Shown piece by piece: positions 48,029 through 61,243 of a stretch of 64,000 bases of DNA (position 1 is its first letter; each line of letters begins with the position of its first letter). The stretch lies in assembly GCA_043798915.1 (NCBI GenBank), contig JAZDOG010000102.1:23226-87225 (forward strand), given 5' to 3'. The notes beneath the pieces are model-generated. The model did no database searches. It saw only the letters and a list, made by a program, of their open reading frames with translations, and was not told the origin of the DNA. The position numbers and the translations under genes are program-made. This stretch comes from Pseudomonadota bacterium. Lineage in GTDB: Bacteria > UBA10199 > 2-02-FULL-44-16 > JAAZCA01.

Positions 48029-49141
48029 TCAAAGCGCCATGGCGTGGCCCGAGGCCACCTCGAAGCGCTTGGCCCCGGAAAGGTGGGTGGCCCAAAGGCT
48101 CCCGGCATCGGTGGCCGTCACGAATACCTGCCCGGCGACATTGCCCAGATAATCGAAGAGAAAACGGCTGCGCTCCGAATCGAGTTCGCTGGCCACATCG
48201 TCCAGAAGGAGGATCGGCTCATCCCCCAGGGCCTCCCTCAACAGCTCCATCTCGGCGATCTTGAGGGCCAGGACGAACGACCTGTGCTGCCCCTGCGAGC
48301 CGAAGTGCCGGACGGCGGCGTCGCCGATCCTCGCCTCCAGGTCATCCCTGTGAGGACCCACGAGCGTGGTCCCGCGGTCGATTTCGTCGGGCCGCCTCTC
48401 TGCGAGCGCGAGTTCAAGCGCCTTCCTGACGGCTGCCTCTCCATCCTTCACCGCCTCCTCGCCACAGTGCGGACGATAGAGAAAAAGCGCCGAGGCGTCC
48501 TGCGGGGCGATTGCGGCGTATTTGTGGGGGATGATCCCGTTGAGCCTCTCGCACCAATGGCTTCGCTCTACCGATATCCTCGTGCCGAGCTCGATGAGCT
48601 GCCCGTCCCAGGCGGCGAGTTCCCTCTCAAGTGAGGGCGGGGGGAGCCCCTCCTGCAGAAGACGGTTCCTGTGGCTTACCACGCGCTCGTAGCGGCCCAC
48701 TACGCCGCGGTAGGATGGTGAGAGCTGTGCGATGAGTCCGTCGATGTGCCTGCGCCTCGCCGAGGGCGAGTCGCGAAGGAGGATTATCTCCTCCGGCGCG
48801 AAGATGACCGTCCCGAGGCCCACGAACCCCCCGGGCCTCGACCTCTTGGAGTTCCTGTAGAATATCTTGGCGGCCGGGTCCATGTTGACCCTGAGTTCGT
48901 CCGAGCCGGCGCTGCCAGATGAAGAAGCCGTAACCCTGGCGGCCTCGCAGTCGCTCCTGATCATATCCCTGAATTCAGAGGTGCGAAAGGACCGTCCGGT
49001 CGCCAGGAGCCCGACCGCCTCCACGATGTTGGTCTTCCCCTGCGCATTCATGCCTATGAGGAGATTGAAATGCGGATCGAGCTCGACGTGTTCATCGGCG
49101 AAATTACGGAAGTTTTTGAGATGGAGGGACTCTAAATACAT
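48029..49141 (-). CDS. recF: DNA replication/repair protein RecF
   Basis: NFRNF, GMNAQGKTN, GPHRDDL, SQGQHRS, LLDDVASELD. Confidence 0.98.
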   Translation of the reverse strand: MYLESLHLKNFRNFADEHVELDPHFNLLIGMNAQGKTNIVEAVGLLATGRSFRTSEFRDMIRSDCEAARVTASSSGSAGSDELRVNMDPAAKIFYRNSKRSRPGGFVGLGTVIFAPEEIILLRDSPSARRRHIDGLIAQLSPSYRGVVGRYERVVSHRNRLLQEGLPPPSLERELAAWDGQLIELGTRISVERSHWCERLNGIIPHKYAAIAPQDASALFLYRPHCGEEAVKDGEAAVRKALELALAERRPDEIDRGTTLVGPHRDDLEARIGDAAVRHFGSQGQHRSFVLALKIAEMELLREALGDEPILLLDDVASELDSERSRFLFDYLGNVAGQVFVTATDAGSLWATHLSGAKRFEVASGHAMAL

Positions 49142-49156
49142 AGCTGACAGCTGATG

Positions 49157-50266
49157 TCACAGCCTCATCGGCATGATGACGTGCGTGAATCCCTTGTCGG
49201 TCTCACTTCGAAGGACGCACGGCGCAGTTTCGTCGCCCATCTCGAGCACCGCCATCTCATCGTTGACAGAGGCGAGGGCATCCAGAAAATATTTGGCGTT
49301 GAATCCCACTTCGAAGGATTCGCCCTTATAGGTCGTCTCGATCTCCTCGCGGGCCTCTCCGAGGTCGGGGTTCGAGCTCGATATATCGATGTTCTTCGAC
49401 GACACAGCGAACTTCACCCCGCGCGATCGGTCGGTCGAAAGGACCGAAACCCTCTTCAGGGCATGGATGAGGTTGTCCCTTTGAACCTGGACCACCCTCT
49501 TGGATTGCTTTGGCACCACCTGCTCATAGGGCGGGAACTGGCCGTCGATCAGCCTCACAACGAGCGTCACGTTGCCCTTGTAGGCCATGATGTGTTTTGA
49601 ATCCACCCATAGGTCCAGAGGCTCGTCGCCTGAATCCACAAGCTTCTTTATCTCCTGCACTCCCTTGCGGGGAATTATCGCGCCCTTCTGGATGGAGCAC
49701 TTCGTCCCCACGTCCCTCTCGACGATGGAGAGCCTGTGGCCGTCCGTCGCAACCATCTTGAGCTTCGTCTTGTCCTTCCCTGTCGGATCCACATAGACGC
49801 CGTTCAAATTAAATCTCGTCTCATCCGTGGACATCGCGAATGATGTCTTGTCTATCATCTGGCTGAGCAAGCTTCCGTCTATCCTCCACACATCCCCCTG
49901 CCCGCGCGTCGGGAGGGCGGGAAACTCCTCGGAGGATAGTCCGACGATCTTATAGCGGCTCTTGCCGCAGCTCATCTCTATCCAGTTGCCATCCTTGACC
50001 GCTATATGGACCGTGTCATCCGGCAGCTCTCTCGCAATATCGTAGATGCTCCTGGCGTGGACGGCCACTTTGCCATTGGCGATAACATCTGCCGGATAGG
50101 TGCAGTTTATTCCAACCTCAAGGTCCGTCGCTGTGATGGAAAGTTTTTTTGCAGTGGCCTCGAGCAGGACGTTGACGAGAATCGGCATCGTCGTCTTCCT
50201 CTCGACGATTCCCTGGACCAGCCCCAAACCTTTGAGAAGTTCACCTCTGGCTATTTTTATTTCCAT
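49157..50266 (-). CDS. dnaN: DNA polymerase III beta clamp
   Basis: ATDLE, DETRFNLNG, ATDGHRL, IMPMRL. Confidence 0.99.
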   Translation of the reverse strand: MEIKIARGELLKGLGLVQGIVERKTTMPILVNVLLEATAKKLSITATDLEVGINCTYPADVIANGKVAVHARSIYDIARELPDDTVHIAVKDGNWIEMSCGKSRYKIVGLSSEEFPALPTRGQGDVWRIDGSLLSQMIDKTSFAMSTDETRFNLNGVYVDPTGKDKTKLKMVATDGHRLSIVERDVGTKCSIQKGAIIPRKGVQEIKKLVDSGDEPLDLWVDSKHIMAYKGNVTLVVRLIDGQFPPYEQVVPKQSKRVVQVQRDNLIHALKRVSVLSTDRSRGVKFAVSSKNIDISSSNPDLGEAREEIETTYKGESFEVGFNAKYFLDALASVNDEMAVLEMGDETAPCVLRSETDKGFTHVIMPMRL

Positions 50267-50280
50267 GGGCGCCTCGCCTG

Positions 50281-50533
50281 TTGTTGTTTAAAATATATTA
50301 AATACAAAACCAGTAGTAGTAGTAGTAGGACTGGATATGTTTATAAACCAAAAAATCACGATGTCCTTCGTCCACTTGTCCGCCCCAGGTTAATGCTGAT
50401 CAGGATGTGGAAGAATGCGCGCCTGCGGATGTTTTCAGAATGCAGAATGAGAAGTAGTCCACCGACTCAAGGGTTGTCAACAGACAATTGAGAGAGATAC
50501 ACAGGAAATCAACATGGGGGTGTGGGCAAGTTG
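50281..50533. other. oriC: oriC unwinding region between dnaA and dnaN
   Basis: AT cluster 50286-50309, (TAG)5 DnaA-trios 50314-50328, box TGTTTATAA 50338-50346, further degenerate boxes at 50406, 50474, 50521. Confidence 0.85.
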
Positions 50534-51874
50534 TTAGTGCAGGATGTCTTTTTCGATGACGGCGATGTCGCTCTGGAGATGGGCGTCCTCCTCGATGAGT
50601 TTTTCGATCTTCCGGCAGGCGTGCATGACGGTGGTGTGATCCTTCCCCCCGAACTTGTTGCCTATCTCCGGGAAAGATGAACGCACGTGCTTCTTGCAGA
50701 GATACATCGCCACCTGTCTCGGGTGGGCGAGCATCTTCGTCCGCCTTGGAGATTTGAGGTCGGAGATGTTTATTTTGTAGTAGTCCGCTACGATCTTCTG
50801 GACGGATTCTATCGTGCAGTTTCGCTCCCTCTCTTCGAGGGCCTTGCCGAGGATCTCCTGCGCGAGTCCGATGGTCATCTGGGCGCCCGTGAGCGATGCG
50901 AAGGCGTTTATCCGGATGAGAGAGCCTTCGAGTTCCCTCACGTTGGTCCTGATCGAGCTTGCGAGGAACATCGCCACGTCGTCCGGGCACTTGAGGCATG
51001 AAGCCTCCGCTTTCTTGCGGAGGATGGCGATGCGAGTCTCGAGGTCCGGCGGGCCGATGTCGGCGATGAGCCCCCATTGAAATCTCGTGCATAGCCTCTC
51101 ATCTATCCCCTTGATGTCCTGCGGGAGGCGGTCGCTGGTGACGACAATCTGCCGGCCGGAGCCATGCAGGGCGTTGAACGTGTGGAAAAACTCCTCCTGG
51201 GTCCTCTCCTTCCCCCCCAGGAACTGAACGTCATCCAGGAGGAGGACGTCGCAGCGGTCTCGGTGCTTCTTTCTGAAATCTTCCATCCTCTCATTCCTCA
51301 GCGCATTTATCAGCTCGTTCATGAACTTCTCTGCGCTGGCATAGTGGATGTGCATCTGGGGATGCGTGGCCATGAGCTGGATGCCTATGGCATGCAGGAG
51401 GTGCGTCTTGCCGAGCCCCACGCCGCCATAGATGAAGAGCGGGTTGTAGTGACCCCCGGGGAGGTCCGCGACCGCCTTGCATGCTGCGTGGGCGAACTGG
51501 TTTGCGGAGCCGACGACGAAGCGATCGAAGCTGTACTTGGGGTTCAGCGGCTCCACCGACCTCGCCCGCGGGACCGCCTGCGGCTCCCGATTTTCAGATG
51601 CCGCCGCCGGCGCGCGAGGAGGCTCGTCCGGCGCTATTTCATAGCTGAGTCTGTAATTCATCTGCGTCAGGGAGAAAAGCTCCTGGCGGATCAGATCGCT
51701 GTAGTAGTCGTTGATCCAATCGGCGACGAATTTGTTCGGGACGACGAGGACGAAGGCCCCGTCTTTGACGTTTGCATCGACTATTGGATTGAACCACGTG
51801 TTATAATTCAGCTCGCTGATCTTGCCCTTGATCGATTCCCTGAGCTGTTCGAAGACTTGATTCATAATAGGCAT
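50534..51874 (-). CDS. dnaA: Chromosomal replication initiator DnaA
   Basis: YNPLFIYGGVGLGKTHL, LLDDVQF, NVRELEG, FGGKDHTTV. Confidence 0.99.
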   Translation of the reverse strand: MPIMNQVFEQLRESIKGKISELNYNTWFNPIVDANVKDGAFVLVVPNKFVADWINDYYSDLIRQELFSLTQMNYRLSYEIAPDEPPRAPAAASENREPQAVPRARSVEPLNPKYSFDRFVVGSANQFAHAACKAVADLPGGHYNPLFIYGGVGLGKTHLLHAIGIQLMATHPQMHIHYASAEKFMNELINALRNERMEDFRKKHRDRCDVLLLDDVQFLGGKERTQEEFFHTFNALHGSGRQIVVTSDRLPQDIKGIDERLCTRFQWGLIADIGPPDLETRIAILRKKAEASCLKCPDDVAMFLASSIRTNVRELEGSLIRINAFASLTGAQMTIGLAQEILGKALEERERNCTIESVQKIVADYYKINISDLKSPRRTKMLAHPRQVAMYLCKKHVRSSFPEIGNKFGGKDHTTVMHACRKIEKLIEEDAHLQSDIAVIEKDILH

Positions 51875-51906
51875 TAATTCACAATCTTATCCACATCTGT
51901 GGATAA
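51875..51906. promoter_or_regulatory. DnaA box cluster upstream of dnaA
   Basis: TTATCCACA 51887-51895, TGTGGATAA 51898-51906, TAATTCACA 51875-51883. Confidence 0.92.
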
Positions 51907-52122
51907 CTTATTTGGTCCTGCGTTGAACTTGATTTCATCCCCTGCGGTTTTCCAAGGACATCGAGCTTTGATTTCCTAATGCGAAGGGGGAATTCTTTGC
52001 AAGATAAAAAAATAAAATTCGAATGCGGAAAATCAGAGGCAAGAGAATCGCCTTGACTCACCAGTTGAAATAAGGTCTCTATCCCCGCGTTCTTGCGGGG
52101 ACTTGGAGGAAGGCGGCAGATC

Positions 52123-52263
52123 ATGAAGAGAACCTATCAACCGAGCAAGCGAAAGCGTAAAAACGTGCATGGATTTCGCCAGCGGATGAAGACCGCGGGC
52201 GGGAGAAAGGTTCTCGCCAGACGGCGGCGCCTCGGCCGGAAGCGGATCGGCGTGAAGCTATAG
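52123..52263 (+). CDS. rpmH: 50S ribosomal protein L34 (not in ORF track)
   Basis: [46 protein letters not shown]. Confidence 0.98.
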
Positions 52264-52279
52264 TCGCGGTGCGTTTTCG

Positions 52280-52627
52280 ATGCCCCGATTCCCAAAATCC
52301 AGGCGGCTCTTGAAACCCGTCGAGTTCGGCGAGGTGAAAAGACGTGGCGTTTGCGCGCGCGCGGGGGTCGTCTCTGTCGCCTGGCTTGGGAAGGATGGAG
52401 TGCGGAGGTTGGGCATCGTCGCCTCGCGGCGGGCAGGCAACGCCGTCGAGCGAAACAGGTTGAAGCGCGTCATCCGCGAATTCTTCCGCATGGAGGGCTG
52501 CCCGTTTCCGATGGGAGATTGCGTCGTCGTGCTCGCCCCCGGCGCGGGGGCGTTCGACAACTTCCGAATAAGGGCCGACCTCGGACGGGCGCTGGAAAAA
52601 ATCAAATGGTTTCGATCTTGCGCATGA
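52280..52627 (+). CDS. rnpA: RNase P protein component
   Basis: FPKSRRL, RLGIVASRRAGNAVERNRLKR. Confidence 0.95.
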   Translation: MPRFPKSRRLLKPVEFGEVKRRGVCARAGVVSVAWLGKDGVRRLGIVASRRAGNAVERNRLKRVIREFFRMEGCPFPMGDCVVVLAPGAGAFDNFRIRADLGRALEKIKWFRSCA

Positions 52628-52836
52628 TGTTCGCTGTCTATCGCACGGCGATCTCTCCCGTTCTCGCGGGGCTCGGTTGCGGCTGTCGCTTCCACCCGTG
52701 CTGCTCGGAGTATGCCAGGGATGCATTTCTTTTGCATCCGCCAGGCCGCGCGATTTTGCTGGTGGCGAAAAGGCTCCTCCGCTGCGGTCCGTGGCATCCC
52801 GGCGGGATAGACCGCCTGCCAGTCATTTCTGCATGA
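52606..52836 (+). CDS. yidD: Membrane protein insertion efficiency factor YidD
   Basis: YRTAISP..CRFHPCCSEYA..RLLRCGPWHPGGID. Confidence 0.93.
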   Translation: MVSILRMMFAVYRTAISPVLAGLGCGCRFHPCCSEYARDAFLLHPPGRAILLVAKRLLRCGPWHPGGIDRLPVISA

Positions 52837-52846
52837 AAGGGAAAAG

Positions 52847-54559
52847 ATGAAACCCGAACACAGAACTATCATTGCGGTAGCGCTATCGGCGGCCTTCTTT
52901 ATCCTGTGGATCACGGTGATCAATCCGTCGAAAAAACCACCCCAGGATGCGACGGCGCCGGCGGCCCAGACGGCGCCGGCGGCAAATCCGCAGGGCGCAG
53001 CAGCGGCGCCGACGGTCGCTGGGACGCAGGCGACAAATCCTCCGTCTGCTCCGGTCGCTTCCGGACCGGCTGATCCGCAGGCGAAGCTGCCTGTCAAGAC
53101 GTGGACGATAAAGAACGACCTCGTGGAGGCGGAGCTCACGAGCGATGGCGCGGTGCTCGCCAGCTATCGAGTCCTCAAGTACAGGCAGACCACAGACGCG
53201 GGGAGCCCCGCGATCGACCTGGCGGCGAGTTCCGTGGGGTTGCCTCCGGCGCTCTCGCTTTTGTTAGAGGGGGCCAACTTCGCGTTCCCTGTTCGGGCCC
53301 ACTTCGAGCTCGTCTCTGCAGATGAATCGAAGGCCGTCTTCGAGTGGCGCTCCCCGGAGGTCGTGGTCGTGAAGACGATCTCGATTCCCAAGGACAGCTA
53401 CGTCGCCGACGTGTCGGTCGAGGTGAAGAACCGCACCTCCCGCGCGCTGTCAGCGCGGGCGCTCCTCGCATGGAGCGGCATGACGCCGCCGCCCAAAAAG
53501 GGAGGGTTCTTCAGTTTCTTAAAACAGCCGTCCTCCGACACGAAGGATCCAGTCTATTACATCAACGGTTCCGTGAAGCGCGAGACAAACCCGGCGAAGA
53601 TCGGCGCCAGGTCCGAACAGTCGGGCAGCGTCCTCTGGTCCGGCGTCGAGAGCCGCTATTTCTTAAGCGCCGTGATACCGCGCGTGCAGGGCGAGGGCCT
53701 TTCGGTCGAATACGGCTCCGCAGAGCTTTCGGCTGAACCGGCCGGAACGCGCGGTGTATGGGCCGGCGCGGCACTCCCGCAGTTCACGGCGGTGCCGGGC
53801 GAGGCGGCCGTGCAGCGCTTCTCCGTCTACGCTGGCCCCAAGGAGATAAACCAGCTCAAGGCCGTGGGGGTGAAGCTCGACGAGGCGATTGACTACGGCT
53901 GGTTCACGGTCATCGCGGTGCCGATCCTCTATCTGCTCAAGTTCTTCTACGGCGCGATCAGAAACTACGGGGTCGCGATCATCCTCCTCACGATCTTCGT
54001 CAAGCTCCTGCTCCATCCGGTGAACATCAAATCGCTCAAGTCGATGAAGGAGATGCAGAGGCTCCAGCCGAAGCTCAAAGAGCTGCAGCAGAAGCACAAG
54101 GGCGACAAACAGCGCATAAATCAGGAGACGATGCAGCTCTTCCGCGCGCACAAGGTGAACCCGATGGGAGGGTGCCTCCCGATGCTCCTGCAGTTCCCGA
54201 TCTACATCGCCCTCTACAAGGTGCTGTGGAACTCGATCGAGCTCTATCACGCGCCGTTCTTCGGGTTCTACCGGGACCTCTCCGCGCCGGATCCGTATCT
54301 CATCACGCCGATACTCCTCGGCATCTTCATGGTGGCGCAGCAGAAGCTGATGCCTTCGGCTTCGGCTGACCCGGCGCAGCAGAAGATGATGATGTTCATG
54401 CCGATCATGTTCGCCGGCTTCATGCTCTTTCTGCCGGTCGGGCTAGTCGTCTACATCCTCATCAACACCGCGATGAGCGTCACGCAGCAGTGGATGTACA
54501 ACAAGGGGATCAGATATCGCGATCTAATCAGGGGAAAGTGGCTGCCAAGGTCTGCTTAG
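52847..54559 (+). CDS. yidC: Membrane protein insertase YidC
   Basis: YAGPK, DYGWF, NYGVAIILLT, VNPMGGCLPMLLQFP, DLSAPDP. Confidence 0.98.
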   Translation: MKPEHRTIIAVALSAAFFILWITVINPSKKPPQDATAPAAQTAPAANPQGAAAAPTVAGTQATNPPSAPVASGPADPQAKLPVKTWTIKNDLVEAELTSDGAVLASYRVLKYRQTTDAGSPAIDLAASSVGLPPALSLLLEGANFAFPVRAHFELVSADESKAVFEWRSPEVVVVKTISIPKDSYVADVSVEVKNRTSRALSARALLAWSGMTPPPKKGGFFSFLKQPSSDTKDPVYYINGSVKRETNPAKIGARSEQSGSVLWSGVESRYFLSAVIPRVQGEGLSVEYGSAELSAEPAGTRGVWAGAALPQFTAVPGEAAVQRFSVYAGPKEINQLKAVGVKLDEAIDYGWFTVIAVPILYLLKFFYGAIRNYGVAIILLTIFVKLLLHPVNIKSLKSMKEMQRLQPKLKELQQKHKGDKQRINQETMQLFRAHKVNPMGGCLPMLLQFPIYIALYKVLWNSIELYHAPFFGFYRDLSAPDPYLITPILLGIFMVAQQKLMPSASADPAQQKMMMFMPIMFAGFMLFLPVGLVVYILINTAMSVTQQWMYNKGIRYRDLIRGKWLPRSA

Positions 54560-54589
54560 AATTTTGTGTCGACGCATGGGGTGAATGAC

Positions 54590-55366
54590 ATGACCGATAT
54601 TGGTTTGAGAAAGAGGATACAGAAGCTCTGCCTTTCTTTGCGCGAACTCACGGAACCCCAGCTTGAATTCATTGAAAGCATTGTCGCGCAACTGCGAAAG
54701 CGTTTCGTGAGGATAGAGCGCAATTCGAGGTCGGACATCGTCGACGAGAAATTTTTGCGGGATTTCGGCGACGTGCTGCGCATTCATCACTGTTTGTCGA
54801 AGGAAGCGTTATCGAAGGATCGCTTTGAATATGCCTTTGAAAGGACACTCAACCAGCGCGGGAAGAAGGCGGAATTAGCCCCATCCCGCGCGCGCCCTGG
54901 TTACGACATAACAATTGATGGCGAACCTTGCTCATTGAAAACGCAGGCCGACAAGGAAATTAAAGACGAGGAAGTCTATATTTCTAAATTCATGGAGCTC
55001 GGAAAGGGCAGATGGTCGGGTTCGGTCGAGGATTTCATTGGCTTGAGAGAGCAGTTTTTGAAGCACATGAAGGCGTACGATCGTATTTTTTCGCTGCGAT
55101 CTCTATCAAGTGGACCTGGGCGAAGGAAATATGAGCTTGTGGAAATTCCAAAGACCCTCCTCCGGGAGGCCCGCAATGGCAAGATTACAGTTTGCAAAGA
55201 AAGCAGACAGAAACCCAAACCAGGATACTGCAACGTTTCAGGCGCCGGGGGCAAACTCAAATTTCAGCTCTATTTTGATGGCGGGACAGAAAGAAAATTA
55301 CAAATCAAACACATCCAGAAACACCTCTGTACCGTTCATGCCCGGTGGGAATTTGACGCGGATTGA
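54590..55366 (+). CDS. Type II restriction endonuclease, SmaI-like
   Basis: Motifs recalled from R.SmaI: FGD.L..HH, PG.DITID, LKT, SK.MELGKG.W, Y.LVEIPK, KPGY, LYFDGG.ERKLQIKH. Confidence 0.8.
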   Translation: MTDIGLRKRIQKLCLSLRELTEPQLEFIESIVAQLRKRFVRIERNSRSDIVDEKFLRDFGDVLRIHHCLSKEALSKDRFEYAFERTLNQRGKKAELAPSRARPGYDITIDGEPCSLKTQADKEIKDEEVYISKFMELGKGRWSGSVEDFIGLREQFLKHMKAYDRIFSLRSLSSGPGRRKYELVEIPKTLLREARNGKITVCKESRQKPKPGYCNVSGAGGKLKFQLYFDGGTERKLQIKHIQKHLCTVHARWEFDAD

Positions 55367-56271
55367 ATTGGAAGGTGCAGCACCGGATGAGAATTCCTCA
55401 CCCGTTCGAGCGCGATATCGACATACTCTGGATTAAGTTCGATACCTATGCAACGTCTCTGAAATTCTCGACACACGATGCCGACCGTGCCTGATCCAAA
55501 AAAAGGGTCGAGCACTTTTGAACCACGTTCCGAACCCGCTAAAAGACAAGTCTTAACAAGGTCGGGAGGGAAAACGGCGAAATGCGCACCGTGAAATCCA
55601 TTTGTATTGACGTTCCAAACGGTCCGACGATTTTTTTGATCCTGGCCGTTCGTCGATAATTCTTGGATGGCTTTGTAGTCATAATAATATGACTCCGCCT
55701 TGCTCATGAGAAAAACATATTCGTGCGATCTTGTTGGACGATCTTTGACGGACTCTGGCTGGCAATTAGGCTTATTCCAGATGATATCAGAACGCAGAAA
55801 CCAGCCATCGGCTTGAAGGGCCAGGGCGAGGCGCCAAGGGATGCCGATCAAATCCTTCGGTTTCAGGCCGCTGGGCGTCGGAGGGCGATAGCTCATCGCG
55901 CGTGCGGGATTTTTTTTGTCGGCGTCTCGCCATCGTCGGTTGCCGCTTGTGTAGGAATCACCGAGATTGAGCCAAAGAGTGCCATCTTCGCGCAAAGTCC
56001 GGCGAACTTCACGGAAGATGGAAACTAAATCACGAATATATTCTTCTGGATCATCTTCGGCGCCTATCTGTCCGCCGATTCCATAATCACGCAGTCCCCA
56101 ATATGGCGGACTGGTGATGCAACACTGGAAGTAGTTATCCGGGATTTTGCTCAAAACTCTTCTGGAATCACCCTGAACGATTTGAATGTCATCCGCATTA
56201 TACAACATTCGAACGCACAGCTTTTCCTGCTCTTTGTACATTTTTACAATGGATTTAGCTGGCGAGCTCAT
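55336..56271 (-). CDS. N4-cytosine DNA methyltransferase, M.SmaI/M.Cfr9I-like (start uncertain)
   Basis: TSPPYWGLRDY, GTLWLNLGD, KPKDLIGIPWR, HFAVFP, VLDPFFGSGT; convergent with the REase. Confidence 0.9.
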   Translation of the reverse strand: MSSPAKSIVKMYKEQEKLCVRMLYNADDIQIVQGDSRRVLSKIPDNYFQCCITSPPYWGLRDYGIGGQIGAEDDPEEYIRDLVSIFREVRRTLREDGTLWLNLGDSYTSGNRRWRDADKKNPARAMSYRPPTPSGLKPKDLIGIPWRLALALQADGWFLRSDIIWNKPNCQPESVKDRPTRSHEYVFLMSKAESYYYDYKAIQELSTNGQDQKNRRTVWNVNTNGFHGAHFAVFPPDLVKTCLLAGSERGSKVLDPFFGSGTVGIVCREFQRRCIGIELNPEYVDIALERVRNSHPVLHLPIQSASNSHRA

Positions 56272-56415
56272 GGTGAGAGGAGAAGGCACTATTACAAATA
56301 AATCCGCGTGGTTAGAAGATAGAAGACGCGTACACCAAACATTGAATTATAGCAATAAGAATGACACGGTTTTGGATAAGAAGAATTGCGGCCAAAAAGG
56401 CACGGCAGAGAAGCT

Positions 56416-58137
56416 TCAGGCGCGTTGAGAAGGCAACTCGTCGAGGATTCCATTGAGGGGAATCTTTGGGTCTTGAGAGAGTTTTCTGACGATAGTTTCG
56501 AAATGCCTGGCCTCAACTTTTTGTGACATGCACGCCCGCGCGAGTCCAAGCCAGAGATTCTCATCTATGTCGGAGCAGTCGATCCCCTGCCGTTTCAAGC
56601 TCCGTGCTGTTTGTCCCAAAAGTCTCCCGACCATTTTCATATCGAGGCCTTCTTTTGCCAGCCGGTCGATGAGGCCCACGTGAGTCGAGAGCGCCAGGCC
56701 TCCGATCACATCATCCGGCAGGCCGTGGTTTTTCAGTCGCGCCTCGATCTCGTGTGTCGGCTCGGGAAGCGCCTCTTTGTTTCGCGCAACCCTCTCCGGC
56801 GCGATTCTCACGGGCGGGTGGTCGGTGTCCGGGTACATCCTGTCCGCGCCGGGCAGTATCCGTTCGAAATCGGTGAGGCCGTCGCGCAGGTGCTGTCTCG
56901 TCTCGCAGGGCACGCCGTCGAAGGCCTCGACGATCCGGTTTTTTATCTCCTGCGTCGCGGTGATCGTGTCTGACTCGGGTCCCCAGACTAGCACGCCGAC
57001 GTCTTCGCGGTTGAGCGAGAGCGCGAGTCTTATGGTGCGCTGGTCGATGTGGTTTCTCGGATACTCCGGATAATTGTCGGTGTGGAAGATGTTGGGGATC
57101 TCGTCCAGGCAGGCGATCACGCGGACGCGCCCCGAGAGTTCGGAGGCGAACATCCTGCCAGGCTGCGTGGGGCGGTTGAGTATTCCGGCGAGCCTCCTGA
57201 GCGCGATCGCCCGGATCCGGTGGCCCTTCGAGAGCGCATCGGAAAGGTTCGGCGAGCGCGTGTTCTTGAGCGCCTCCGTCATGTCGATCTCAGATGCCTT
57301 GAGATTCTTGGCGTCCAGGCCGCGGCGCTTCAGTTCGTTTTTAATATCCAAAAGGGCCTTTTGCCTCAGGGCCTCGATCCTCGTCAGCGCCGGGATGAGT
57401 TGGTAGCGCGGCACGCCCTTGATCTCGACGCGGGAGCCGCCCTCGATCGAGACGTTCACGTCCTGCCTCACCGCGCCGATCCCGAGCCTGACCTTTCCGC
57501 TCGCGCGCAGGAGCCTGCCGATGTGGCGCACACCGCGCCCGGCCTCCTCGGGGCTCTTGAAGCAGGCCTCCGTCACCACTTCGATGAGGGGCATGCCGAG
57601 GCGGTCGGTCCTGAAACGGATCATGTGGCCTTCGTCCGTGACCTCGCGGCAGGCGTCCTCCTCGATCGAGAAATGCGAGACGCCGATCCTCTCCCCCTCG
57701 AACGGGATGGAGCCGTTGATCCCGACGATGCCGGTTCGCTGAAAGCCGGTCGGTATCGAACCGTCGAGATACTGCTTTCGCGCGATGTGCATCTCGTCGA
57801 CGATCGAGCAGCCGCACATGAGCGCCAGCTCGATGGCGATCTCCAGCGCATCCTGGTTGATAGGAAACGGCGGCGTGTCGTCCAGCTCGTAGGTGCAGAC
57901 GGATTCCTTGTTGAGCAGGTAGACGATCTCCTTCTTTGTCTTGTACTCCATGAGCGCGCAGCCGTCGTAGACGCCCATCTCGGAGAGCGTGGGCCTCATG
58001 TGGCGCAGCACTTCGGCGTGGTGCACCTTCGAATATCTGGCGGCCGGGCAGCGGCAGAAGAGCTTCTTCTCCGTCAGGAGCTGCTGGTGGATTTCGACGC
58101 CGCACTTGAACCCTAAGCCTTTGAGATCGTCTGCCAT
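56416..58137 (-). CDS. gatE: Glu-tRNA(Gln) amidotransferase subunit E
   Basis: GVEIHQQL..KLFCRCP, RKQYLDGSIPTGFQRT, EEDACR, DRLGMPLIEV, RQDVNVSI, RVEIKGV, AspRS-like insertion, PGADRMYPDTD. Confidence 0.92.
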   Translation of the reverse strand: MADDLKGLGFKCGVEIHQQLLTEKKLFCRCPAARYSKVHHAEVLRHMRPTLSEMGVYDGCALMEYKTKKEIVYLLNKESVCTYELDDTPPFPINQDALEIAIELALMCGCSIVDEMHIARKQYLDGSIPTGFQRTGIVGINGSIPFEGERIGVSHFSIEEDACREVTDEGHMIRFRTDRLGMPLIEVVTEACFKSPEEAGRGVRHIGRLLRASGKVRLGIGAVRQDVNVSIEGGSRVEIKGVPRYQLIPALTRIEALRQKALLDIKNELKRRGLDAKNLKASEIDMTEALKNTRSPNLSDALSKGHRIRAIALRRLAGILNRPTQPGRMFASELSGRVRVIACLDEIPNIFHTDNYPEYPRNHIDQRTIRLALSLNREDVGVLVWGPESDTITATQEIKNRIVEAFDGVPCETRQHLRDGLTDFERILPGADRMYPDTDHPPVRIAPERVARNKEALPEPTHEIEARLKNHGLPDDVIGGLALSTHVGLIDRLAKEGLDMKMVGRLLGQTARSLKRQGIDCSDIDENLWLGLARACMSQKVEARHFETIVRKLSQDPKIPLNGILDELPSQRA

Positions 58138-58252
58138 GGCGGGCAGGAATAGGACAAACGCCGTTGCATGGCAAGCGAAAGCAGGCGCGGGCGACCTTGA
58201 CAACAGGCCCCAATGAGATAGAGAGGGCGCTTGTTGCTGAGAGGCTTAAGAT

Positions 58253-59638
58253 ATGCCAGAGTCCGATGATTACAAGGGTTATCGCGATCCCGGATTGGCC
58301 GTTCTCAAAAAATACGGCGTGGCCGTGTGGGACCGGGTCGAGATAGACACGCACAAGGGGCCGTTCGCCGGCCTCATCCTCCCGCGCTCCTCGACCGAGG
58401 ACGCCTGCCACATCGTCATCAAGATGCCGATAGGCTACAACACCGGCATCCACGTCGATTCGATAAAGTCGATAAAGAAGGTGGGCCGGCGCGAGGGCCA
58501 CTACGCAATACCGGAGAAGAAATTTCCCTACGACAAGCGGAAGAAGAGCGTCTTTCTGCTGGGCACCGGCGGGACGATCGCATCGCGCCTGGATTACACG
58601 ACGGGCGCCGTCGTGCCGGCATTCTCGCCCGGCGAGCTCTACGGCGCCGTGCCGGAGCTGGCCGACATCTGCAACCTCACCACGAAGAAGCTCTTCGGCG
58701 TCTTCTCCGAGAACATGGCCAGGGAGCAGTATCAGGGTCTGGCGGAGGAGATAGGAAGGCTCATCAGGGACGGCGTCGACGGGATCGTCATTGGCCACGG
58801 CACGGACACGATGCACCACACGGCGTCGATCCTCTCGTACATGGTGCAGGGCTCGCCGGTCCCGATCATCCTCGTGGGCTCTCAGCGCTCCAGCGACAGG
58901 CCGAGCTCCGACGCCGCCAGAAATCTTTTGAACGCGACGTTCGCGGCCGCGCACTCCGACATCGCCGAGGTCATGGTCTGCATGTTCGGTCCGACCTCCG
59001 ACGACTACGATCTGCTCCATCCCGGGACGCGCGTGCGCAAGATGCACTCGAGCTATCGCTCGACGTTCCGGACGATAGGGGACATCCCGCTGGCGATGGT
59101 CTGGCCCGACCGGGTGGTCCCGCTCAAGGAATACAAAAAGCGCCGCACCGATCGCGAGGTGAAGATCAACACCGCATACGACGATCGCGTGGCGATCCTC
59201 TACTATTATCCCGGGATGAATCCGGACATGGTCGATTCCCTGGTGGACAAGGGGTATCACGGCATCGTCATCGCGGGGACGGGCTTGGGGCACGTGAACG
59301 CGGTGCTCAATCCCTCGCTCAAGCGGGCGGTCGACGCGGGGGTGACCGTCGTGATGACGGTCCAAACGCTCTGGGGTTTCGTCCACATGAACGTCTACGA
59401 CACCGGGCGCTATCTCCTGGAGCTGGGGATCATCCCGTGCGAGAACATGCTGCCGGAGGCGGCGTATATGAAGCTCTGCTGGGTCCTCGGGCAGACCTCC
59501 GACCTGCCAGAGGTAAAGAGGATGATGCTGACCCCGATCGCCCACGAGATCACCGAGCGCGAGCCGCACAACGGATACCTCGTCTATCAGGGCGGGATCC
59601 CCGAAGTTGAACGGTTCCTTTCCACCTACAAGAAATAA
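58253..59638 (+). CDS. gatD: Glu-tRNA(Gln) amidotransferase subunit D
   Basis: N-terminal domain with IVIKM..GYN.GI, TGGTIASRLDYTTGAV, HGTDT, GSQRSSDRPSSD, RKMHSS. Confidence 0.93.
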   Translation: MPESDDYKGYRDPGLAVLKKYGVAVWDRVEIDTHKGPFAGLILPRSSTEDACHIVIKMPIGYNTGIHVDSIKSIKKVGRREGHYAIPEKKFPYDKRKKSVFLLGTGGTIASRLDYTTGAVVPAFSPGELYGAVPELADICNLTTKKLFGVFSENMAREQYQGLAEEIGRLIRDGVDGIVIGHGTDTMHHTASILSYMVQGSPVPIILVGSQRSSDRPSSDAARNLLNATFAAAHSDIAEVMVCMFGPTSDDYDLLHPGTRVRKMHSSYRSTFRTIGDIPLAMVWPDRVVPLKEYKKRRTDREVKINTAYDDRVAILYYYPGMNPDMVDSLVDKGYHGIVIAGTGLGHVNAVLNPSLKRAVDAGVTVVMTVQTLWGFVHMNVYDTGRYLLELGIIPCENMLPEAAYMKLCWVLGQTSDLPEVKRMMLTPIAHEITEREPHNGYLVYQGGIPEVERFLSTYKK

Positions 59639-59673: not shown

Positions 59674-60471
59674 GTGAGCACAGCCGCCATGCAAAATCCG
59701 CCGCTCAAGGTCGTTCTCGGCATCTTCCTCGCGGTCGTCCTCTTGCAGATACCGGCCGAGTTCATCATCGCCGGCTTCTCCGTGGCGTGGGGCATCCTCA
59801 TCAACGAGGCGCTGTTCATCCTTGCGGTGCCTCTTGCCATCCTCAAGCTCATGGGGTTTGGCATCTCCTCGATCCTCCCCCTCGGCCGCCCCGGCAAGAG
59901 GCAGGTCCTTGTGGCCGCATGCATGACGCTCGGGGCCGCCGTCGTCATAAGCTACGTCCGCTCGGCGAGTGATCACCTCATCCCCCTCCCCGAGGCGTTC
60001 GTCGCGCGCCAGACGCGTGCGATGGCCGTCCGCTCGTGGAACGATTTCTTCCCCAAGCTCCTGCTCCTCGGCATGATAGCTCCGTTCTGCGAGGAGATCC
60101 TCTTTCGCGGCATCATCCAGCCCGCGCTCGCCCGCCGGACCGGCTCCGCAATCTCGATCGTCATAACGGCCGTCTTCTTCGCCCTCATCCACAGCACTTC
60201 ATTCCAGCCGCACCTCTATCTCCTCCTGGGGCTTCTCTTCTCCTGGCTCTTCGCCGTCACCGGGTCGCTGCGCATCACGATAATGTGCCACGCCATAAAC
60301 AACTCCTGGGCGCTTGCGAATCAGGTCAGAGGGCTCGGTTTTCCGATCGAAGGGAGCATGAGGGCGGCAGACTGGACCCTCCTGGCCAGCGGGGCCCTGA
60401 TTGTTCTGGCCGGAGCGATCCTGATGATGCGGTTCAAGCGCGAAACCGCACGGGGGCGCAGCGGCGCCTGA
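59674..60471 (+). CDS. CPBP (CAAX/Abi) intramembrane metalloprotease
   Basis: EEILFRG, FALIH, HAINN; multiple TM helices. Confidence 0.88.
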   Translation: MSTAAMQNPPLKVVLGIFLAVVLLQIPAEFIIAGFSVAWGILINEALFILAVPLAILKLMGFGISSILPLGRPGKRQVLVAACMTLGAAVVISYVRSASDHLIPLPEAFVARQTRAMAVRSWNDFFPKLLLLGMIAPFCEEILFRGIIQPALARRTGSAISIVITAVFFALIHSTSFQPHLYLLLGLLFSWLFAVTGSLRITIMCHAINNSWALANQVRGLGFPIEGSMRAADWTLLASGALIVLAGAILMMRFKRETARGRSGA

Positions 60472-61243
60472 GGATCGCGGCGAAGGCGAAGAAGACGAGG
60501 ACCGCTGCGGCGAGGAGGATTGCATCCGGTCGGCCGAAGGGATGGGAGAGCGGTAGTTCGAAGCCGCGCATGTGGTTGATGAAGCTCCATGAGTTGTTGA
60601 TGAGATGGCAGAGGATCGGCGCCCACAGAGTTCCCGTCAGGGCGTAGATCCAGCCGAGGAGCAGCCCCAGGATGGAGTAGAGATGGAAATACCACGGGTT
60701 GCCGTGGAGGATCGCGAAGAAGAGGGCCGTGATCGCGATCGCGGGCCAGTCTCCCCAACGCGCCGAGAGAGACGTCTGGCAGAATCCCCTGAAGAACAAT
60801 TCCTCGCAGAAGGCCGGGAGCAGGCACAGGACGACGAGCTTTATCGCGGCATCCGCCGGCCCGGAGATGGCCATGATCCTGTCGTAGGCCGCGCTCACCT
60901 CGGGCGGCAGGGGGAAGAAGTGTTCGCTCCCGGCGGTCATGTAATCGATCAGGATGGCGGCTGAGATGGTGACGACGGCGGTGAGCGCCAGCACCGCGAT
61001 GGACGGGCGCTCAAGCGGCAGGAGGCGCCTACGGTTGAATCGAAGGAGGGCGATTATAGCGAGCGGCACTCCGGCCACGGCGATTATTTCGTTCGCAGCC
61101 ACGCCCAGCGAAACGAAGCCGGCGCGGAGGAGGAGCTGGGTCGGAAACTGAAAGAGCGTGACGAGCGTCAGCGTCAGGAAAACGAGCGGCGCCGATGCCG
61201 TCGCAGTCCCGGGCTTCAAGATCGATTCAAACCATCGCTTCAT
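60434..61243 (-). CDS. CPBP intramembrane metalloprotease, paralogue
   Basis: EELFFRG, FAILH, HLINN. Confidence 0.88.
   Translation of the reverse strand: MKRWFESILKPGTATASAPLVFLTLTLVTLFQFPTQLLLRAGFVSLGVAANEIIAVAGVPLAIIALLRFNRRRLLPLERPSIAVLALTAVVTISAAILIDYMTAGSEHFFPLPPEVSAAYDRIMAISGPADAAIKLVVLCLLPAFCEELFFRGFCQTSLSARWGDWPAIAITALFFAILHGNPWYFHLYSILGLLLGWIYALTGTLWAPILCHLINNSWSFINHMRGFELPLSHPFGRPDAILLAAAVLVFFAFAAILRRRCAPVRFRA

Follow-up and report, generated by a model that had tools for sequence, protein, structure and literature searches.

Why would a bacterium that encodes glutaminyl-tRNA synthetase (GlnRS) also keep a complete GatDE, the two-subunit amidotransferase known from archaea? The question is raised by a gatE/gatD pair at positions 56416 to 59638 of a 64,000-nucleotide stretch (the window) of contig JAZDOG010000102.1 in the bacterial genome assembly GCA_043798915.1. 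Reviews of 2008 (PMC2330236), 2021 and 2022 (PMC9499178), in the portions of their text that deal with the enzyme, call GatDE an archaeal signature or restrict it to archaea, and tie it both to archaea having no GlnRS and to the A1-U72 pair of archaeal tRNA-Gln; the 2022 review states in the same portion that no archaeal species encodes GlnRS. Here the pair is intact and accompanied by GlnRS. We lean, with some reserve, towards a working Glu-tRNA(Gln) amidotransferase that the cell would retain alongside GlnRS as a safeguard or auxiliary route and that would act through the acceptor end of a U1-A72 tRNA-Gln. The elements of the locus are as follows.

56416 to 58137, minus strand: gatE, the kinase/transamidase subunit, 573 amino acids from the ATG at 58137.
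56914 to 57312, minus strand: AspRS-like (GAD) insertion domain of GatE, residues 276-408, placed by its structure match to AspRS.
56419 to 56811, minus strand: C-terminal helical remnant of GatE, residues 443-573, with the YqeY-like tail proper missing.
58138 to 58252, no strand: divergent intergenic spacer between gatE and gatD, 115 bp with the ATG start taken for gatE.
58253 to 59638, plus strand: gatD, 461 amino acids, with the GatD N-terminal domain (24-76) and an asparaginase-type amidase (100-425).

The longest gatE frame (56416 to 58203, minus strand) starts from an upstream in-frame TTG, which adds 22 residues for a total of 595 and would shrink the spacer to 49 bp. The ATG at 58137 is the probable start, because the homologues are 555-600 amino acids long and the alignment consensus begins there. 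A preliminary description of the locus had read both genes as intact and divergent around a 115-bp spacer, and the list of reading frames and the ATG start agree with it. No riboswitch, leader or promoter was recognised in the spacer, as 58138-58252 gave no Rfam match at E<=1 and no match to the sigma-70 consensus.

GatE scored 514.1 bits against the NCBIfam model NF003107 (cut-off 456) and 426.1 bits against TIGR00134 (cut-off 319.55), while the GatB models stayed at 57-129 bits, far below their cut-offs of 315-680; the Pfam domain found in it is GatB_N. Among PDB sequences it matches GatE of P. abyssi (1zq1_C, E 1.5e-98) and of M. thermautotrophicus (2d6f_C, E 2e-92). In the latter alignment H17, E159 and E186 fall on His15, Glu157 and Glu184, and the three residues are invariant across 40 GatE homologues. 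His15, Glu157 and Glu184 bind Mg and their mutation kills the enzyme, according to the part of PMC2330236 on the GatE active site. An AlphaFold2 model, built from a 40-sequence alignment (predicted local distance difference test 85.9, predicted template modelling score 0.83), was aligned with GatE from the tRNA-Gln complex (2d6f_D) over 515 residues with a Z score of 36.5 and a root-mean-square deviation of 5.5. Residues 276-408 of the model align with the E. coli AspRS insertion domain (1c0a_A; Z 13.4, root-mean-square deviation 3.0, 122 aligned) and 11 other AspRS entries (Z 10.6-13.2). The AspRS-like insertion claimed for gatE at the outset thus rests on 12 structures with Z 10.6-13.4.

GatD likewise exceeded the cut-offs of its own models, with 504.4 bits for NF003217 (cut-off 310) and 495.2 bits for TIGR02153 (cut-off 324), and it carries the Pfam domains GatD_N (PF18195), Asparaginase (PF00710) and Asparaginase_C (PF17763). 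Its structural counterparts are 1zq1_A (E 1.4e-118) and 2d6f_A (E 1.5e-111), with which the motifs GTGGTIASR, HGTDTM and VRKMH are aligned and conserved. The catalytic Thr and the Thr-Lys-Asp triad are assigned to residues of these motifs. The N-terminal domain and the TGGT, HGTDT and SSDRPSSD motifs listed in the preliminary description are all present in the translation and align to the archaeal GatD structures. A free type I L-asparaginase was ruled out by the higher GatD-model scores (the type I model TIGR00519 reached 385 bits, below the 495-504 bits of the GatD models), by the GatD_N domain and by the adjoining gatE.

The C-terminus is where this GatE differs from the archaeal enzyme. 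The profile matches end at 548 of 622 and 562 of 630 model positions, PF02637 (GatB_Yqey) has no match in the protein, and the structure model aligns with 2d6f_D only to chain residue 538, the deposited 2d6f_C having 619 residues; the tail had been described as short and diverged, and these data concur. After the conserved YPDTD motif, 137 residues remain in the window GatE and 117-167 in 12 loci of its own order, as compared with 187-205 in 54 of the 60 loci counted in other lineages. In the other six (L040, L041, L049, L059, L071 and L084, with 29-174 residues) the frame is in some cases broken or truncated at the end of a contig. The window GatE stops 48-70 residues short of its full-length relatives. 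What is missing is therefore the last 50-70 residues, the YqeY-like tail that binds the D-loop, and its first, helical part remains. The C-terminal extension of GatE touches the tRNA's D-loop, as the section of PMC2330236 on the complex describes. Among the best 120 database matches, PF02637 is recorded in one of the 66 entries P0002-P0067, which hold all matches with at least 62% identity, and in 30 of the 53 more distant entries P0068-P0120. Within the subclade the catalytic core (1-275) is 73-89% identical and the C-terminal remnant (443-573) 34-52%. These comparisons indicate that tail loss is confined to the window's own bacterial order and is a derived state, since the tail-less order nests among full-length sequences in the GatE tree described below. 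The tail-less form is common to the whole order, including 11 genomes without GlnRS, and the truncation therefore predates GlnRS. A YqeY protein acting in trans in place of the tail was ruled out, neither PF02637 nor PF09424 having a genome match at E<=0.01.

What else does the genome have for making Gln-tRNA(Gln)? The window's own genome (2.34 Mb in 105 contigs, 97.23% complete, 3.26% contamination) has no TIGR00132 match to GatA, and the GatB model TIGR00133 matches only gatE itself. GlnRS is encoded by glnS on another contig, C67, with 750 bits (cut-off 425.8), beside the single GluRS gene gltX (549.5 bits). AsnRS (447.5 bits), a bacterial AspRS (761.8 bits) and two AsnB-type genes over cut-off are also present, and AsnA was not found in the genome. 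By this inventory GatDE is the only tRNA-dependent amidotransferase of the genome, yet the main supply of Gln-tRNA(Gln) lies elsewhere, because GlnRS would charge tRNA-Gln directly and AsnRS would charge tRNA-Asn. The preliminary description had suggested that GatDE replaces or supplements GatCAB, and had proposed to inventory gatCAB, glnS, gltX, asnS and the 1-72 pair of tRNA-Gln. GatA and GatB are indeed missing, but replacement is unneeded in a genome with glnS, one gltX and asnS. Nor is tRNA-dependent asparagine synthesis required as a reason for retention, as AsnS and two AsnB-type genes are present.

ARAGORN found 47 tRNA genes in the genome and Infernal 43. The two tRNA-Gln genes, one UUG and one CUG, both have a U1-A72 pair, and all 39 tRNA-Gln genes read in relatives start with U paired to A72. 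The preliminary description had called for compatible tRNA(Gln) identity elements; the 1-72 pair here is the bacterial U1-A72 and not the archaeal A1-U72. We considered a partition of isoacceptors, in which the CUG tRNA-Gln (C2-G71, A3-U70, A10) would be served by GluRS and GatDE and the E. coli-like UUG tRNA-Gln by GlnRS. It was ruled out, as both tRNA-Gln types are vertically inherited across the class, with and without GatDE and GlnRS. Although AsnRS is present, no tRNA-Asn was found among the 47 ARAGORN tRNAs or the 43 Infernal matches, and its gene is probably unassembled.

The relatives show how GatDE, GatCAB and GlnRS are distributed. In a sample of 41 genomes that includes the window's own (G000), GlnRS occurs in 8, AsnRS in 27 and GatA over cut-off in 32. 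GatE passes its cut-off in 17, and a piece at a contig end in G010 brings the GatE-bearing genomes to 18. Twelve of these 18 have GatA, and only one of the twelve, G036, also has GlnRS. The GatE-bearing genomes without GatA and GatB are G000, G004, G006, G011, G013 and G018, and all but G018 (83% complete) have GlnRS. Both gatE and gatD are intact frames in G006, and gatE is intact in G004, G011 and G013; the five genomes with GlnRS and without GatCAB span four genera, and all keep an intact gatE. A GluRS tree covering 24 of the 41 genomes (those with stored loci; G022, G026 and G036 were left out) joins G000 and G004 with G006 and G011 in one clade (support 0.979) and places G013 elsewhere. 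This placement implies two independent replacements of GatCAB by GlnRS, with GatDE left in place each time. The glnS gene lies directly beside gltX in the window's genome (C67:5698-8841, L015), in G004, G006, G011 and G022, and also in G046, G051 and G056; some of these pairs are in GlnRS-bearing relatives and several in GatDE-bearing genomes of other phyla.

Is GatDE a recent arrival in this lineage? The identities of GatE and GluRS to the proteins of the window's genome are, respectively, 76/74% for G004, 71/69% for G011, 76/70% for G001, 74/68% for G003, 71/71% for G009 and 62/65% for G013. Between these genomes GatE has not diverged faster than GluRS, and its catalytic core is better conserved than GluRS. 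The GC content at third codon positions (GC3) is 0.82 for gatE and 0.87 for gatD, close to that of yidC (0.83) and of a neighbouring gene for a CPBP protease (0.85), and the host-like, GC-rich codons noted at the outset are thus borne out. The order is not uniform, GatDE being missing from G002, G015, G017, G019 and G021. Its presence in 17 of the 41 genomes, its GluRS-like divergence and its host codon usage nevertheless indicate that GatDE is old and vertically inherited in this lineage and not chimeric.

The gene order points the same way. The locus lies about 4.5 kb from dnaA, with recF, dnaN, dnaA, rnpA and yidC at 48029-54559, in line with the earlier placement near the replication origin. 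YidC is a neighbour of gatE in eight of the clustered related loci, RnpA in six and DnaA in five, and this gatE-yidC-rnpA-dnaA synteny, common to the window and its relatives, speaks against a chimeric contig, the possibility that the preliminary description had raised. Loci of the window's own order have the same divergent arrangement of gatD and gatE, the two genes being separated by 150 bp to 2.3 kb, and their GatD proteins are 78-86% identical. In other phyla the genes mostly form a gatE-gatD operon or are unlinked.

GatDE is also found well beyond this order. We examined 26 GatDE-bearing bacteria, from Calditrichota, Bacteroidales, Planctomycetota, Zixibacteria, Ignavibacteria, Gemmatimonadota, CSSED10-310, Coatesbacteria and others, with one Thermoplasmata archaeon as control; completeness is not reported for this sample. 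GlnRS exceeded its cut-off in 23 of the 26 (missing in G042, G052 and G059), AsnRS in 25 and GatA in nine. Sixteen combine GatDE and GlnRS with no GatA over cut-off; the titles of three of these present them as whole chromosomes, and in another entry of the sixteen, G047, a partial GatA stays below cut-off. A dedicated second GluRS in GatDE-bearing genomes was ruled out, two full-length copies being present in only three of the 26 (G041, G060 and G066).

To place these proteins, a GatE tree (FastTree, LG+gamma) of 58 bacterial and 26 Thermoplasmatota sequences was rooted on three GatB; the sequences retained had about 520 residues or more beyond the N-terminal motif, and Thermoplasmatota was the sole archaeal phylum sampled. 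A canonical archaeal clade of 18 has support 0.986, and the remaining eight archaeal sequences split off one after another on the way to the bacteria. Three archaeal and all 58 bacterial sequences form a group of 61 with support 0.979, and the split of those three from the bacteria has support 0.0. The window's order is monophyletic (0.999) and lies among full-length sequences labelled Planctomycetia and Myxococcales. Among Thermoplasmatota, both GatE types occur in three genomes and only the bacteria-like type in five. The three with two types are G061, G075 and G097 (L095, L199, L201, L212, L218 and L219), whose canonical proteins score 529-681 bits and whose bacteria-like proteins score 420-469 bits with TIGR00134. 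The GatB-rooted tree, with its one archaeal phylum, fits an ancient cross-domain transfer, as had been proposed.

If GatDE still amidates Glu-tRNA(Gln), its substrate would have to come from GluRS. Whether the family members compared have GlnRS or lack it, their single GluRS shares 68-74% identity with that of the window's genome. The GluRS of the members without GlnRS must charge tRNA-Gln, since no GlnRS is there to do so, and the comparison indicates that the single GluRS of the window's genome is vertically inherited from such a non-discriminating enzyme of GlnRS-less sister genera. It probably still makes some Glu-tRNA(Gln). Bacterial GluRS turned discriminating after the gain of GlnRS, with Arg358 of the T. 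thermophilus enzyme decisive, according to the passage on this residue in PMC2978374. As a test of discrimination the Arg358 rule proved undecisive, for the aligned Arg is present in 24 of 24 GluRS, 19 from GlnRS-less genomes included. Its flanks are more variable. They read ERER[GA][KR]T in all 19 GlnRS-less relatives and in G006 and G011.

Under the reading that we prefer, GatD would release ammonia from Asn or Gln, and GatE would phosphorylate the side-chain carboxyl of Glu on tRNA-Gln and then amidate it to Gln, as expected by homology. GluRS would still form some Glu-tRNA(Gln), and GatDE would convert that product. The conversion would guard against mistranslation of Gln codons with Glu and would furnish Gln-tRNA independently of free glutamine. 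Recognition of the tRNA would be unlike that of archaeal GatDE and would rest on the acceptor end, since the tRNA-Gln has a U1-A72 pair and the D-loop-binding tail of GatE is gone. The five Thermoplasmatota genomes in which the bacteria-like GatE is the only GatE fit an ancestral role in Glu-tRNA(Gln) amidation.

Several observations weigh against an active Glu-tRNA(Gln) amidotransferase in this organism. The archaeal enzyme uses the A1-U72 first pair of tRNA-Gln as an identity element, as stated in the part of PMC2330236 on tRNA recognition, whereas both tRNA-Gln genes here have U1-A72. The YqeY-like D-loop module is gone from GatE, and a YqeY/GatB_Yqey domain is found nowhere in the genome (PF02637 and PF09424, E<=0.01). 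None of the 60 related loci scanned, over about 6 kb to either side of gatE, has a gene for tRNA-Gln (one tRNA-His was seen). In 42 of 44 GatE-bearing bacterial genomes GlnRS or GatA is also present, and the two exceptions, G018 (83% complete) and G042 (which has no GluRS match either), both look incomplete. By these counts bacterial GatDE is never clearly the sole route to Gln-tRNA, which is odd for a fully competent Glu-amidotransferase. The main ground for doubting that Glu-tRNA(Gln) is still made here lies in GluRS itself (L015:1492-2889). At the Arg358 site, in the anticodon-binding domain, the GlnRS-bearing G000 and G004 and, independently, G013 have VRVRG[DK]T, which is found in none of the 19 GlnRS-less genomes. 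The change from ERER to VRVR may be a convergent one after the gain of GlnRS, with a shift in anticodon reading, and VRVR may mark a discriminating GluRS that leaves no Glu-tRNA(Gln).

The alternative that survives best is that GatDE has been repurposed, the kinase and amidation chemistry being the same and the substrate being other than Glu-tRNA(Gln), especially in the tail-less form. Asp-tRNA(Asn) or some other acyl-tRNA would be candidates, as would a small acceptor-stem-like or a non-tRNA carboxylate. We hold this to be rather unlikely, though it would sit well with a number of the findings. GatDE of other phyla stands beside GlnRS in 23 of 26 genomes and AsnRS in 25, with GatA in only nine; in the window's family it stays constant while GatCAB and GlnRS swap; and in G061, G075 and G097 the bacteria-like GatE occurs beside a canonical one. 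The tail is lost, the C-terminal region evolves fast (34-52% identity as compared with 73-89% in the core), and the altered GluRS motif points to a possible loss of the canonical substrate as well. On the other hand, GatE has kept the active-site residues of the Glu-tRNA(Gln) enzyme, and the equivalog cut-offs for GatE and GatD are exceeded. With AsnS and two AsnB-type genes, a tRNA-dependent Asn route is not required, and the GatE insertion domain clashes with AspRS in the modelling that PMC2330236 describes. No conserved neighbour other than gatD was found in 77 loci that would point to another pathway, and the five archaeal genomes appear to rely on the bacteria-like type alone.

A second alternative, that GatDE became redundant with GlnRS and has simply not yet been lost, with deletion of the tail as the first step of decay, appears improbable. 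In its favour, the genome has direct enzymes for both Gln and Asn, the truncated tail is of variable length in own-order loci (117-167 residues after the motif), and five genomes of the order lack GatDE altogether. But the tail-less form is found in the whole order, including its 11 GlnRS-less genomes, and is older than GlnRS; the five GlnRS-bearing, GatCAB-less genomes, from four genera, all have intact frames; the catalytic core is better conserved than GluRS; and GC3 is host-like. A chimeric contig or contaminated bin that joined GatDE and GlnRS from different organisms, conceivable in a 105-contig bin with 3.26% contamination and with glnS on C67 and gatDE on C53, can be dismissed as highly improbable, given yidC-rnpA-dnaA beside gatE here and in up to eight related loci, glnS adjoining the vertically inherited gltX in G000, G004, G006 and G011, the similar GC of C53 (0.580), C67 (0.558) and the genome (0.577), and a genotype that recurs in four more relatives and in other phyla (16 of 26 genomes, with three titled whole chromosomes).

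The genes around the locus add little on function. The pair is flanked by a SmaI-type restriction-modification pair and two CPBP-protease genes. The former, a SmaI-type restriction endonuclease (PF17411, 287 bits) and an N4/N6 DNA methylase (PF01555), occupies 54566-56289 in the interval between yidC and gatE, and its genes overlap tail to tail. With a GC of 0.49 and a GC3 of 0.50-0.57, as compared with about 0.8 around it, and with no counterpart in related loci, it looks like a recent insert. The two CPBP (Rce1-like) intramembrane protease genes at 59674-61243 are convergent, and their 3' ends overlap by 38 bp. In Zixibacteria and Ignavibacteria the neighbours of gatE are glycosyltransferases and a cytidylate-kinase-like gene, and in the window's order they are YidC, RnpA and DnaA. 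A linked tRNA-Gln or otherwise informative neighbours were ruled out, the neighbour clusters being lineage-specific synteny. Elsewhere in the genome, a tRNA-Sec was found on contig C75. ARAGORN also reported two odd tRNA-Thr(tgt) genes (C33:11173-11248 and C94:71461-71542) that have a long identical stretch in common and are unlike the other tRNA-Thr; these positions are absent from the Infernal list, and the two are likely a repeat with tRNA-like folding.

How does this GatDE compare with known systems? The archaeal enzymes of M. thermautotrophicus (2D6F) and P. abyssi (1ZQ1) have the same two subunits in the same domain order, with the N-domain and asparaginase in GatD and the cradle, AspRS-like insertion and helical domain in GatE. 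The likeness extends to the His/Glu/Glu of the Mg site and the Thr/Thr-Lys-Asp motifs, with E values of 1e-92 to 1e-118 and a fold Z score of 36.5. The window pair differs in its bacterial host, in a GatE without the last 50-70 residues, in its U1-A72 tRNA-Gln, in its coexistence with GlnRS and in genes that are divergent instead of forming an operon. A further counterpart is the wider bacterial clade that shares its branch in the GatE tree (Zixibacteria, Ignavibacteria, Bacteroidales, Planctomycetota, Calditrichota, Gemmatimonadota, CSSED10-310 and others), whose GatE is 41-57% and GatD 63-69% identical to the window proteins. Its GatDE likewise stands beside GlnRS (23/26) and AsnRS (25/26). 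Whereas that clade has a full-length GatE and genes mostly in an operon or unlinked, the window's order has the tail-less form and the divergent arrangement. A parallel from another enzyme is GatCAB of Thermus, Deinococcus and Bdellovibrio, which like the window GatDE is an amidotransferase kept beside both direct synthetases, as the relevant passages of PMC2330236 and PMC4206432 report. There it serves tRNA-dependent Asn synthesis, AsnA and AsnB being missing, whereas the window genome has two AsnB-type genes; the window enzyme is also of the Gln-specific GatDE type, the GatB models falling far below their cut-offs.

The novelty first attached to the locus is reduced in part. NCBI and JGI records already name the proteins of the large bacterial clade GatE and GatD. 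In full-text literature searches, one of them for papers since 2013 that use the word GatDE, no paper characterising a bacterial GatDE was seen among the titles and abstract openings listed. The locus is thus a further member of a large clade annotated in databases, and what is particular here is the tail-less GatE and the clean exchange of GatCAB for GlnRS among its relatives.

These results bear on what GatDE does in bacteria at large. A tentative view, to which we give clearly less weight than to the auxiliary route, is that bacterial-type GatDE has a separate conserved function added to complete Gln-tRNA(Gln) synthesis and is not a spare archaeal route. It is suggested by the presence of GlnRS or GatCAB in 42 of 44 genomes, by some Thermoplasmatota with both GatE types, and by a tail that was shed while the core was conserved. 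If so, the enzyme would be a reader of the acceptor end, either proof-reading the Glu-tRNA(Gln) of a leaky GluRS or amidating a different acyl acceptor. The family of the window's organism swapped GatCAB for GlnRS and kept GatDE, and it thereby offers a direct way to ask what GatDE adds. If GatDE is an auxiliary or proof-reading route, it would bear on the persistence of indirect aminoacylation pathways. If it acts on another substrate, it would be a new use of amidotransferase chemistry.

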